32,000 bases of DNA, from the NCBI GenBank assembly GCA_030614005.1, contig JAUWKS010000005.1:30001-62000 (forward strand). The letters run 5' to 3'. Below, piece by piece: positions 15,041 through 18,214 of this stretch (position 1 is the stretch's first letter; the number at the start of each line of letters is the position of its first letter). Source of the DNA: Candidatus Heimdallarchaeota archaeon. Its GTDB lineage: Archaea; Asgardarchaeota; Heimdallarchaeia; JABLTI01. The translations under genes were made by a program, and so were the position numbers. Below the pieces are notes generated by a model. That model did no database searches, was not told the DNA's origin, and was given only the letters and a program-made list of their open reading frames with translations.

Positions 15041-18000
15041 TTACTCTGTTTGGGGGAGGAGTATCTCATTTTCAACAAAGTAGATTATTTGCTGAAGAAT
15101 TTCATCATGAGAGAGAGTTTTCGACTCTTTAAATGAACGAGTAATTAATTGATGAATATCTAAAGCTGTATCTTCACCAAAATTCTCAAGATGGTTTTCA
15201 AGAATAGAAACCATTTGAATATCCGCAATATTTGTTTTAGCTAGATTTTCCTTGTGAATAAGCATGGGAGCAAAGTAGTAGATATGTAAGTACTCATCCA
15301 ATAATGGTATTGCAGTATTAAATACTTCAACGAGCCCAGTGAATTCTTCTAGGTCTCTTTTAAAGACAGTTTCAAATCGTTTAAGCAAGTCCCAATTTGG
15401 CATTTTGAATTCCTTGGATGGCTCATCATCAAGAAGGAGAGCAAGTCTAACATTCTTACCCTCAAAAATCCAGAAAATGCCTCCTTTTTGACCCATTTGA
15501 CTAAATTTGTTAGAAGGTGGTTGATCAGCATCTACCAATTCTTGACCAAAACCTGCAATTGCTGTCAAAAAGCCACTAGCTAAGGCTGAATCAATGTTAT
15601 GAGCAAAATTAATTGAAAGTAATGGAACTCCATTCTTCTCCATGAAGATAATGGATTTGATTTTTAAAATATCAGTTAAAAAGCCAATAGAAACTTTCGA
15701 ATCAGTTTTCAAAACGGAAACTACAGGAGAAGTTTCAGGAGCTTTAATAGCGTCAAAATTCAGTGGTTCAATTTCAGTTGTTTCGATAATAGCAACTGGA
15801 GCAGCTTCAGTTTTTGCTAGATCTTCAGCTTGGAGCTCTTTCCGTCTTAACTTTCTTTCCTTTCTCGCCGGTCGTAATTTTATTACAAGCAAAGTTGAGA
15901 TGATAATTACAACAGCACCTGTGGACAAACCACCTATCAATAGATAAAGCCAAAGATTATTGCCAGGATAATCAGTGTTGTCATTTGGGTCAGTTCCTGC
16001 GTCAATTTCCTCTTTGTCAGTAAAACCATCGTTGTCTGAATCGGCGCTAAGGGGGTTGGTTATAAAACCATCAACTCCCTCAAAGACTTCTTCTCCATCT
16101 AAAATACCATCGTCATCGGTGTCCTCATTATTGGGATCAGTGTAATAAGTAAAAATCTCGAGATTATCATCTAACCCATCGGAATCTGTATCTGCTTTGT
16201 AGGGATTTGTTTCAAAAATCTCTAGTTCAAAGTAATCAGCAAGACCATCACCATCAAAATCGCGGTCAATGATTTCTAAACCATCATTAAAGTCTGCAAG
16301 GTAAGTGTAATTTTCATAAAAAGAAACACCATAAGCATTTCCACCATCGTAAAATTCTTCTCTTAGTCTTGGACTAGCTTTATTTGTAACATCAATTGTT
16401 TTCAAACCTGAACTACCATCAGCGAGATATGCAAAATCACCGAAAACATCTATCCCATATGCCGAACTGGTCCCATCATCATATTCACCTACTTCTTGAG
16501 GGTTCACTTTATCACTGATATCAACAATTTCCAAACCAAGCGATCTATCAACTAAATAAGCATAAGCACCATTCACTACAACTTCATTGCAGCTTCCGCC
16601 ATCATCAAAAACACCTACAGTAACAGGATTTAACTTATCATTAATATTAATAATCTTCAAACCATCATAATTATCTGCGATGTAAGCGTAATTACCTGAA
16701 ACAAAAATGCTCTGAGCGTTAGTAATTAGATTATCGTATTTTACTAATTGTACTGGGCTGTTTTTATCTGTGATGTCAAAAATTTCCAAACCATCTGAGC
16801 TATCCGCTAAGAAAGCATAATTATCAACCACCATCACATCTGTGTAATACCCACCATCAGTAAAGTCACCAACTTTCTGAGGACTGTCTTTATTACTAAC
16901 GTCAATAATTTTGAAACCATCATTTCCACAAGCAATAAAAACATAATTGCCTGCTACAAAAATATCATTGGTATAACCACCATCATTGAAGTGACCTATA
17001 CTTTGAGGATGTGTTTTGTTACTAATATCGATAATATCCATACCATTGTAACCACTAGCAAGATATGCGAAATTATCTTCGACTGCAACTTTTCTTGCGT
17101 ATCCTCCTGTAACAAATTGTCCTTCTTCAAATGGATTAGATTTGACACTAGCGTCAATGATTTCAAAACCATCCCAACCATCTGCTAAATAAACAATATT
17201 TCCGTCAACTAAAACATCTACAGCATATCCACCATCGAAGAAGTATCCAACTTCTACCGGGTTAAATAGGTCTACAATACTAACTATGATCAAACCACTC
17301 AGATAGGTAGCTAAGTAAGCAAAATCACCAAAAACATCGATATCTTGAACAAAATATCCATCATCGAATGTACTAACTAATGCTGGGCTATTTTTGTAAG
17401 TGACATCAATTATCTTCATTCCATCCCAACCAGCTGCAAGAAAGATATTATTACCGTTCAATGCAATACTAGAGTAAGAATCTCCAGCATCATAACCACT
17501 AATTGGATCGGGATGGCTTTTATCAGTAATATTTAAGATATTTAAACCATCATTTCCAGCTGCTAGAAAAGCAATATCTTCATCGATAACAATATCATAC
17601 TCGTTTCCAAGTGTATTGAATACACTTTTTTGAACAGGGTTATTTTTATCAGAAACATCAACAATTATCATACCATTTGAATATTCCATAATGTAAACAA
17701 AATTACCATCCACAACGATGGATTCAATGCTACTCCATGTGGAAAGATGAGCAATTTCTATAGGATTTGTTTTATTACTGATATCAATAACTCTTAGACC
17801 ATTATAACCTACAAAGGCATAATCGCCATCTACTGCTACTGCTCTAATTATGTAATTATCATACAGTTGACTTACAAATGAAGGTGATGTAGAATCGCTT
17901 ATATCAAGAATTTGAAAACCGCTAAAAGAACTAGCCAGGTAAGCATAATCACCTGAAATATCCACATCTAATATTGAACCATACTTTTCATCAATTTGAC

Positions 18001-18214
18001 CGAGTTCGATATCATAGTAAATAGAAGTCGTCTCTAAATTGGTAAAAGGTGGGAGACTATTAGTGATTAACTCATTTTCGTCAATGTTCTCTCCACTAAG
18101 AAAGTTATTTTGCTGCAATTGGAAAAATATTGAACAACAAAAAAGTAAAATTACAAATCCTGGCATTAATGTTCTTCTCAATTGCCAGATATTAAGTAAC
18201 ATCAAAGTAATCAT
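15041..18214 (-). CDS. Single-pass membrane protein: LVIVD beta-propellers, TSP3-like repeats, TM helix, cytoplasmic longin-like domain and helical tail
   Basis: Hydrophobic N-terminus; 14 LVIVD repeats (aa ~80-650); four DxDxDG(L/I/F)xD repeats; TM aa ~754-779 followed by RPARKERKLRRK; aa ~851-980 IKSIIFMEKNGVPLLS..DSALASGFLTAIAGFGQE..FWIFEGKNVRLALLL. Confidence 0.85.
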   Translation of the reverse strand: MITLMLLNIWQLRRTLMPGFVILLFCCSIFFQLQQNNFLSGENIDENELITNSLPPFTNLETTSIYYDIELGQIDEKYGSILDVDISGDYAYLASSFSGFQILDISDSTSPSFVSQLYDNYIIRAVAVDGDYAFVGYNGLRVIDISNKTNPIEIAHLSTWSSIESIVVDGNFVYIMEYSNGMIIVDVSDKNNPVQKSVFNTLGNEYDIVIDEDIAFLAAGNDGLNILNITDKSHPDPISGYDAGDSYSSIALNGNNIFLAAGWDGMKIIDVTYKNSPALVSTFDDGYFVQDIDVFGDFAYLATYLSGLIIVSIVDLFNPVEVGYFFDGGYAVDVLVDGNIVYLADGWDGFEIIDASVKSNPFEEGQFVTGGYARKVAVEDNFAYLASGYNGMDIIDISNKTHPQSIGHFNDGGYTNDIFVAGNYVFIACGNDGFKIIDVSNKDSPQKVGDFTDGGYYTDVMVVDNYAFLADSSDGLEIFDITDKNSPVQLVKYDNLITNAQSIFVSGNYAYIADNYDGLKIININDKLNPVTVGVFDDGGSCNEVVVNGAYAYLVDRSLGLEIVDISDKVNPQEVGEYDDGTSSAYGIDVFGDFAYLADGSSGLKTIDVTNKASPRLREEFYDGGNAYGVSFYENYTYLADFNDGLEIIDRDFDGDGLADYFELEIFETNPYKADTDSDGLDDNLEIFTYYTDPNNEDTDDDGILDGEEVFEGVDGFITNPLSADSDNDGFTDKEEIDAGTDPNDNTDYPGNNLWLYLLIGGLSTGAVVIIISTLLVIKLRPARKERKLRRKELQAEDLAKTEAAPVAIIETTEIEPLNFDAIKAPETSPVVSVLKTDSKVSIGFLTDILKIKSIIFMEKNGVPLLSINFAHNIDSALASGFLTAIAGFGQELVDADQPPSNKFSQMGQKGGIFWIFEGKNVRLALLLDDEPSKEFKMPNWDLLKRFETVFKRDLEEFTGLVEVFNTAIPLLDEYLHIYYFAPMLIHKENLAKTNIADIQMVSILENHLENFGEDTALDIHQLITRSFKESKTLSHDEILQQIIYFVENEILLPQTE
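16265..17977 (-). repeat. 14 tandem LVIVD repeats (~41 aa each)
   Basis: Repeated V.V.GxYAYLA....GL.IIDIS....P unit, 14 copies counted by eye. Confidence 0.88.

Follow-up and report, generated by a model that had tools for sequence, protein, structure and literature searches.

In eukaryotes, membrane traffic and nutrient signalling centre on small GTPases and their longin and roadblock regulators. Such GTPases and regulators are also abundant in Asgard archaea. This report concerns a gene for a receptor-like membrane protein of 1057 amino acids, encoded by a single open reading frame (ORF; P0001) in a stretch of DNA from a Candidatus Heimdallarchaeota archaeon (GenBank assembly GCA_030614005.1, contig JAUWKS010000005.1, positions 30,001 to 62,000); the whole stretch of 32,000 nucleotides is referred to here as the window. 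A first-pass annotation, made from the nucleotide sequence, had read the gene as coupling a beta-propeller ectodomain to a cytoplasmic longin domain. The protein is best explained as a type I membrane protein of an Asgard archaeon with an acidic ligand- or surface-binding head. Its C-terminal module of 212 residues consists of a domain of the longin/roadblock superfamily followed by a small winged-helix-like domain. In it, a known GTPase-platform fold is built into a single-pass receptor, one of a family without a name.

Longin and roadblock platforms in described systems

The roadblock and longin proteins of Asgard archaea described so far are either soluble or joined to GTPases or two-component domains (Tran et al. 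2024, PMC10933270; Liu et al., bioRxiv 10.1101/2020.10.19.343400). For the Roadblock/LC7 superfamily, Liu et al. (10.1101/2020.10.19.343400) count 130 orthologous groups (asCOGs); they also report that many NPRL2-like longins with a small C-terminal domain occur in Asgard archaea. No description of a transmembrane longin/roadblock receptor in Asgard archaea was found in open-access papers and preprints, the supplementary tables of which may list some.

The bacterial MglB-MglA system, a roadblock GTPase-activating protein (GAP) with its Ras-like GTPase, supplies the best Foldseek matches to the module (6h5b and 6hjm, E about 2.5e-5). As in that system, a single GTPase is predicted to be bound at its switch regions by a dimer of the module. 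However, MglB is small and soluble and has a long N-terminal helix, whereas the module has a helix of 7 residues before strand beta1 and two longin-like C-terminal helices, carries a winged-helix-like domain, sits on a transmembrane (TM) receptor and does not match the Pfam Robl_LC7 model. MON1-CCZ1 and FUZ-INTU (CPLANE) resemble the module at Z 9-11 over about 120 residues (7q3d, 9rs7, 5ldd), and the nearest small relatives of the module profile in the genome match Pfam Fuz_longin_1. The predicted contact with a Rab through helix alpha1 and the neighbouring loops of two paired domains is also of this kind. These complexes differ in being soluble Rab-exchange-factor heterodimers with three longins in each subunit, whereas the protein described here has one such domain, on a membrane protein.

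NPRL2/NPRL3 of GATOR1 (a GAP for RagA) share with the module the order of a longin-type domain and a small C-terminal domain, and can be compared with it in the nearly invariant glycine of the module beta1-beta2 loop and the arginine (76%) at the start of beta5. They are soluble, the GP dipeptide of GAP longins (PMC12290439) is absent from the module, and none of the top fold matches is a GATOR1-type chain. In Ragulator-Rag and in the SRX/SR-beta pair of the signal recognition particle receptor (SR-alpha), a membrane-held platform of the roadblock or longin type docks a small GTPase, and LAMTOR2/3 and SRX are among the fold matches of the module. Anchoring there is provided by a lipidated subunit or by a membrane GTPase of its own, whereas here the platform lies in a single-pass protein with a large ectodomain.

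Integrins also combine a propeller ectodomain with one TM helix and signal to small GTPases, but their tails are short peptides that need adaptors. The longin SNAREs (Sec22, VAMP7 and phytolongins) join a longin domain to a TM anchor, with the difference that the longin domain is N-terminal, the TM helix serves as a C-terminal tail anchor and an ectodomain is lacking. In the conservons of Streptomyces, the membrane sensor kinase CvnA is thought to act through the roadblock protein CvnB on the Ras-like GTPase CvnD. The conservon parts are separate proteins encoded in an operon, whereas the protein described here has sensor and platform in one chain and no operon partner was seen.

Architecture and topology of the receptor

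The extracellular and membrane parts proposed in the first-pass annotation (a signal-like N-terminus, exactly 14 LVIVD blades, four calcium-type DxDxDG repeats, one TM helix with a basic cytoplasmic edge, and a linker) were all recovered (Table 1). A motif scan counts 14 LVIVD copies from residue 99 to residue 645 at a spacing of 40-43 residues, while the Pfam LVIVD model (PF08309) registers 13 stretches, at an E value of 1.1e-97 and 319.6 bits (cut-off 20.2). The DxDxDG motifs stand at residues 650, 675, 698 and 725, and their region exceeds the threshold of Pfam TSP3_bac (PF18884) with an E value of 9.3e-14 and 51.4 bits (cut-off 25). The ectodomain has a net charge of -102, and its sequence found no match in the PDB. 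The TM helix is preceded by an acidic segment and followed by KLRPARKERKLRRK. The linker of about 67 residues that leads from the helix to the module is absent from most relatives, where the module begins right behind the TM helix.

The placement of the module inside the cell is a family-wide feature. Lysine plus arginine are richer on the module side of the TM helix in 94 of the 95 relatives with a TM helix when 15 residues are counted on each side (mean 5.2 after the helix vs 0.84 before it). Because 94 of the 95 TM-bearing members follow the positive-inside rule, the module is, judged from sequence, cytoplasmic throughout the family. An extracellular C-terminus, which would have spoken against the annotated receptor, is at odds with this pattern and with the basic flank behind the TM helix of the protein itself. 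A hydrophobic N-terminal stretch is present in 42 of 62 full-length relatives. N-glycosylation sequons were set aside as a topology marker, being uninformative (4 vs 7 expected in the ectodomain, 0 vs 1.3 expected in the tail).

Fold of the C-terminal module

An AlphaFold2 (AF2) model of the module was built with an alignment (A1) of 50 aligned modules and reached a mean predicted local distance difference test score (pLDDT) of 89.2 and a predicted template modelling score (pTM) of 0.83. The model has a short helix (7 residues, model residues 19-25), then the order beta-beta-alpha-beta-beta-beta-alpha-alpha, which is the longin topology, and then the small domain. Its strands (E) and helices (H) are E28-35, E40-45, H52-69, E79-85, E88-94, E98-104, H110-132 and H139-152, so that two helices follow beta5. 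Helix alpha1 of the modelled domain is DSALASGFLTAIAGFGQE (residues 875-892). The conserved residues of the domain are G862, D875, SGF at 880-882, A885, F889, E892, R923, E948 and G960.

Solved roadblock and solved longin domains match the model equally well. The best Foldseek matches in the PDB are MglB, Asgard Roadblock3, LAMTOR2/MP1 and dynein roadblock, at E values down to 2.5e-5 (reached by MglB 6h5b_B) and with a TM-score of 0.74, normalised by target, for Roadblock3 9jue_C. VIA-align, which is independent of Foldseek, places Roadblock3 9jue_D (Z 12.1, root mean square deviation [rmsd] 2.4, 105 residues aligned) level with the VAMP7 longin 4afi_B (Z 12.0, rmsd 2.9, 120 residues) and the longin domain of a Lokiarchaeota Roadblock-Longin protein, 8yqg_B (Z 11.8, 132 residues), followed by CPLANE, Sec22, TRAPP, Mon1-Ccz1, SRX and adaptor sigma/mu chains. 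Of these, CPLANE, Mon1-Ccz1, TRAPP and SRX are platforms for GTPases. The scores tie, and the longin alignments are longer than the roadblock ones and also cover the two C-terminal helices.

Sequence comparisons link the module to named families at a distance. None of the 50 aligned modules matches the Pfam longin (PF13774, PF19036 and related) or roadblock (Robl_LC7, PF03259) models at E values up to 1, the module of the receptor matches no Pfam or NCBIfam model, and a search of PDB sequences with the family profile gave nothing at E values up to 10. The sole PDB sequence match is a weak one to MglB (phmmer E 0.038). Within the genome, the module profile matches small proteins at E values of 1e-9 to 5e-8. 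One of these (L026, E 9e-9) reaches the gathering score of Pfam Fuz_longin_1, which two others match weakly; a more distant match of the profile is a Robl_LC7 protein (E 6e-15). Since the connection runs through L026 and not through a direct match, the link of the module to a longin Pfam family is only transitive. The longin domain of the first-pass annotation is upheld as to topology and resemblance to solved longins such as VAMP7; the name itself is shared with roadblock domains, which match as well, and no Pfam model stands behind it. Because roadblock domains matched as well as longins, longin/roadblock superfamily is the safe label, within which either name is equally defensible. The model suggests, in our reading, that the module is a distinct, unnamed sequence family inside this superfamily with the longin topology.

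The tail domain

The tail had been annotated as about 70 helical residues. A tail of about that size is present, but it is modelled as a small, winged-helix-like domain of strands and helices and is not plainly helical. Modelled alone by AF2 with 70 sequences, it has a pLDDT of 87 and the order strand-helix-helix-helix-strand (E5-7, H21-33, H41-51, H57-69, E73-75). All of its fold matches are winged-helix domains and all are weak, with Z scores of 5.0-6.3 and no Foldseek E value below 0.5.

These matches bear on the idea that the protein is a membrane-tethered transcription regulator, in which DNA would be bound by the winged-helix tail, either directly or once proteolysis had freed it, and the longin/roadblock domain would serve as sensor or dimeriser. 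DNA binders of the Fur/PerR and BlaI types are among the matches, a soluble paralog (L032) has Pfam winged helix-turn-helix matches behind its longin part, and an Atlas cluster joins the longin part with TrmB. Against this, the matches do not exceed a Z score of 6.3, and many are protein-binding winged helices (cullin WHB, ORC/MCM, DEP, and the recognition elements of ribosomally synthesised and post-translationally modified peptides). The tail is also acidic, with 5 lysines and arginines vs 13 aspartates and glutamates in 75 residues (net charge -8), a composition that argues for binding to protein over binding to DNA. A role of the tail in DNA binding was judged unlikely on this ground, and transcription regulation is a very improbable function of the receptor.

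A module family throughout the phylum

The receptor design is not singular. A HMMER search with residues 825-1057 against 1.84 billion representative proteins gave 243 matches at E values up to 1e-3, and the module was located by the A1 profile in the best 150 of these. One TM helix is directly followed by the module in 93 of the 150 (about 60%), a soluble N-terminal part precedes it in 31, and in 22 only the module or a fragment is present. Among the soluble partners are HerA-like ATPases, HEAT repeats and FG-GAP repeats. Of 200 genomes sampled from the phylum, 193 have a match to the module profile, including all 85 of the high-quality ones, with more than 2,200 matches in the 200 genomes (a lower bound, at most 14 candidates being scored per genome). 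In the Atlas and the AlphaFold DB the full module occurs in uncharacterised archaeal proteins of 390-1280 amino acids (TM-score 0.75-0.80 over about 215 residues), and Promethearchaeota (Asgard) is the commonest phylum named among the matches. A word-indexed protein search returned two matches only. As judged by these profile matches, the protein belongs to a phylum-wide, highly expanded family.

The genome that contains the receptor (3.6 Mb, 90% complete) encodes five full modules, that of the receptor included. The others are carried by two proteins with an FG-GAP propeller and TSP3 repeats, a receptor with LVIVD and TSP3 repeats, and an FG-GAP protein without a clear TM helix. The paralogs L009 and L010 have FG-GAP propellers in place of LVIVD. 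About 21 further ORFs match the first domain only; they include a protein with four TM helices and two proteins of more than 1800 amino acids. The four-TM protein (L013, G000:C81:35803-36939, 378 amino acids) has the first domain after its TM helices, and a soluble protein of 423 amino acids (L014, G000:C34:58614-59885) has it at the N-terminus; neither has a Pfam match. Three module-related ORFs lie within 10 kb of one contig (G000:C10:11605-21109, including L009 and L006). They are a full receptor of 960 amino acids, a 486-residue protein with the first domain only, and a 108-residue tail fragment with a TGA stop that is probably a decayed paralog.

The ectodomains of the family vary. Of 57 that were scanned, most have no Pfam family at all; the others include 8 with MG4, 7 with Big_1, 4 with TSP3, 2 with LVIVD, 2 with FG-GAP and 1 with SBP_bac_5 (solute-binding protein). 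The occurrence of one module behind many ectodomain types is as expected of a shared output module. The same ectodomains (LVIVD and FG-GAP propellers, Ig-like Big_1 and MG4 arrays, TSP3) are of the adhesion type, which would fit a structural adhesin or envelope protein whose module is an anchoring or sorting handle for the cytoskeleton, ESCRT or coat-like proteins and has no GTPase role. Longin domains serve as such handles in SNAREs and adaptor sigma/mu subunits, as do roadblock domains in dynein, and the fold scores of the module for VAMP7, Sec22, AP sigma/mu, COPI zeta and dynein roadblock are similar. This explanation must be set against the fusion of the module to GTPases in three representative clusters, the complex prediction that passed against its controls (both described below), and the best sequence links of the module, to MON1/FUZ-type longins and MglB-type roadblocks, both of which act on GTPases. 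A purely structural role is considered quite unlikely.

Links to small GTPases

The module is joined to GTPases in natural fusions. Three representative clusters (P0006, P0008 and P0012) consist of a Ras-family GTPase domain plus the module, which is 44, 38 and 33% identical, respectively, to that of the receptor. On a metagenomic contig (L024) a fusion gene adjoins a Ras-family gene and a gene for a protein with a weak SMCR8_C match. On another contig two divergent neighbours (L023:3311-4687, plus strand, and L023:5106-6428, minus strand) each encode a Ras-family GTPase domain and a full module and flank a gene of 118 amino acids of no known family; the layout recalls Rag heterodimers, which pair through C-terminal roadblock domains.

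Among the 38 small GTPases of the genome, the closest relative of the fused G domain is the Rab-like protein P0153 (G000:C62:4827-5432; 41% identity). A complex of P0153 with two copies of residues 840-1057 was predicted with a score of 0.61, compared with 0.04 for the best control. Of 78 solved complexes, 51 attain this score mark, as do 2 of 108 mismatched pairs; this calibration was made on single-chain pairs and holds only roughly here. Agreement between the runs extends to at least 91% of contacts, and the pLDDT of the partner is at least 82. On the GTPase side the predicted interface comprises the N-terminal strand, switch I, the interswitch and switch II. On the module side it comprises the beta1-beta2 hairpin (861-864), alpha1 of both copies, which lie together, and the G960 loop. 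The interface contains 10 of the 18 module positions that are conserved at 80% or more, where 1.9 would be expected (p about 6e-7).

These results point to a mechanism in which events outside the cell reach a GTPase through a single chain. The 14 propeller blades on their putatively calcium-binding TSP3-type stalk would form a ligand- or surface-binding head, and the TM helix and linker would connect it to the longin/roadblock domain and the small acidic winged-helix-like domain inside. Roadblock and longin domains typically dimerise, as in Ragulator-Rag, MglB and Mon1-Ccz1, and two receptor tails may pair through these domains. In such a pair the two alpha1 helices, together with the beta1-beta2 hairpins and the G960 loop, would make up a platform at the membrane, on which a Rab-like small GTPase docks with its switch I, interswitch and switch II surface. 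Binding or clustering of the ectodomains would thereby be coupled to recruitment or regulation of the GTPase. This mechanism as a whole is favoured by a modest degree; the dimerisation, the docking and the identity of P0153 as partner are predicted from modelling.

The neighbouring fusion genes can also be read in another way. The module may be mainly a pairing unit, comparable to the C-terminal roadblock domain of Rag proteins, that forms homodimers or heterodimers with other module-bearing proteins, GTPase-module fusions included, and would recruit them through contacts between modules that do not involve the switch regions. Two fusion genes side by side are what would be expected of a Rag-like heterodimer. 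The dimerising habit of these domains is consistent with pairing, as is the position of the two alpha1 helices together in the predicted complex, and the five full modules and about 21 further longin/roadblock-type matches of the genome could supply partners. On the other side, the genome yielded no GTPase-module fusion at its 90% completeness, and the controlled prediction puts the G domain itself on the conserved surface. Pairing and docking are not exclusive mechanisms. A module that is mainly a pairing unit is rather unlikely.

Several points weigh against docking of a GTPase by the receptor. The complex score may reflect likeness to the solved MglA-MglB, Mon1-Ccz1-Ypt7 and TRAPP-Ypt1 complexes, and such a prediction would not single out a true partner, if there is one, from the 38 GTPases. 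The conservation of alpha1 could serve folding or dimerisation and not contact with a GTPase. Binding to a GTPase is itself a prediction, and the module, as noted above for all 50 aligned members, has no direct match to a Pfam roadblock or longin model. A search for P0006 in 121 sampled genomes of the phylum, at E values up to 1e-40, found no single-frame fusion, the matches being to the G domain or the module only. Gene neighbourhood gives docking no support, with 4 of 26 module-bearing ORFs within 6 kb of a GTPase gene vs 2.9 expected (p 0.34, not enriched) and no GTPase gene adjacent to any of the five full-module receptors.

A Ras-family GTPase of 273 amino acids is encoded in the window at 661-1482 on the minus strand, 13.5 kb from the receptor gene (Pfam Ras, E 2.4e-41). 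It has a C-terminal extension of about 100 residues without a Pfam match and, among the GTPases of the genome, ranks fourth in closeness to the fused G domain of P0006. Its position was rejected as evidence for partnership on the basis of the neighbourhood result, in agreement with the first-pass annotation, which had taken the distance of about 14 kb as no indication of a partner. The contig has two further GTPase genes just upstream of the window (C73:29156-29710 and C73:19164-19745). Elsewhere in the genome, the gene for L026 (G000:C63:3098-3622, minus strand, 175 amino acids) is 46 bp from a minus-strand gene for a protein of 557 amino acids with an N-terminal small-GTPase domain (G000:C63:3668-5338), and the two are a candidate longin-GTPase gene pair.

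The proposal of the first-pass annotation that the protein is a single-chain surface receptor signalling to a small GTPase is borne out by the architecture, the fusions and the controlled docking prediction for P0153 as far as the design is concerned; binding and signalling are predicted.

The module may act on a docked GTPase as an exchange factor or a GAP, or be a passive scaffold or effector, and the residues of the platform bear on this. GAP-type longins have a GP dipeptide at the beta1-beta2 loop beside an arginine finger (PMC12290439). In the module family, G862 is kept in 137 of 143 members and is followed by V, L or I. The G-P dipeptide occurs in 0 of 143 members (G-x-P occurs in 27, the receptor included), and the module therefore lacks the strict signature of GAP longins of the FLCN, NPRL2 and SMCR8 type. 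R923, at the start of beta5, is arginine in 108 of 143 members (76%) and lies outside the confident interface residues, and its nearness to G862 is deduced from strand order only. In the predicted pose the hairpin is not at the nucleotide pocket.

Features of the gene and the surrounding window

The features of the receptor gene are given in Table 1. Just past its stop codon, between the receptor gene and the convergent gene at 14109-14978, an inverted repeat (GTGATAT / ATATCAC) followed by T runs was seen by eye at about 14985-15035. The neighbouring genes encode an alpha/beta hydrolase, a GNAT acetyltransferase, an acyltransferase of the 2-oxoacid dehydrogenase type and a DegV protein, which have no evident tie to the receptor gene.

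Table 1. Parts of the receptor gene, with positions in the window and the basis of each assignment
Feature	Position	Strand	Basis
Whole ORF (P0001), 1057 aa plus stop	15041..18214	-	ORF call
N-terminal signal-like segment, aa 1-33 (RR at aa 13-14, hydrophobic core aa 15-33)	18116..18214	-	Hydropathy scan
14 LVIVD repeats, aa ~60-650, period 42 aa; beta-propeller ectodomain	16265..18037	-	Pfam PF08309 and motif scan
Acidic stalk with four DxDxDG calcium-binding-type repeats, aa 650-750	15965..16267	-	Motifs and Pfam TSP3_bac
Single TM helix, aa 755-778	15881..15952	-	Top hydropathy window 2.3
Juxtamembrane basic edge and cytoplasmic linker, aa 779 to about 845	15680..15880	-	Composition
Longin/roadblock-superfamily domain, aa 846-982	15269..15679	-	AF2 model, fold searches, conservation, predicted GTPase interface
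Acidic winged-helix-like tail subdomain, aa 983-1057	15044..15268	-	AF2 model of tail alone; weak winged-helix matches

Other genes of the window include tandem paralogs of 267 and 269 amino acids (10713-11516 and 11865-12674, both plus strand) that have an N-terminal Zn_Ribbon_1 and no other recognised domain. On the minus strand at 8296-10186, an ORF of 206 amino acids with only the N-terminal domain of Glyco_transf_4 overlaps the start of a complete GT4 glycosyltransferase of 441 amino acids, which could be a duplicated or broken gene. An apparently truncated ABC ATPase gene lies at 23489-23899 (minus strand). The gene at 24236-26341 (minus strand) encodes a clostripain-family (Peptidase_C11) protein of 701 amino acids with a PPC pre-peptidase domain, which is probably a secreted protease.

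Significance of the receptor family

Genes of this kind number in the thousands, and it is the family that is of interest. A broader proposal, plausible though tentative and somewhat short of an even chance, is that single-pass receptors with varied ectodomains throughout the Asgard phylum use this common, unnamed module to dock and regulate Rab/Ras-like GTPases directly, forming a one-chain route from outside to inside that would predate eukaryotes. If this is true, a family of more than 2,200 copies that hard-wires a GTPase platform to extracellular binding domains would be a concrete and testable route of input, and its members would be candidate archaeal counterparts of receptor-to-GTPase signalling. 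The family may show how Asgard archaea connect the cell surface to their GTPase switches.

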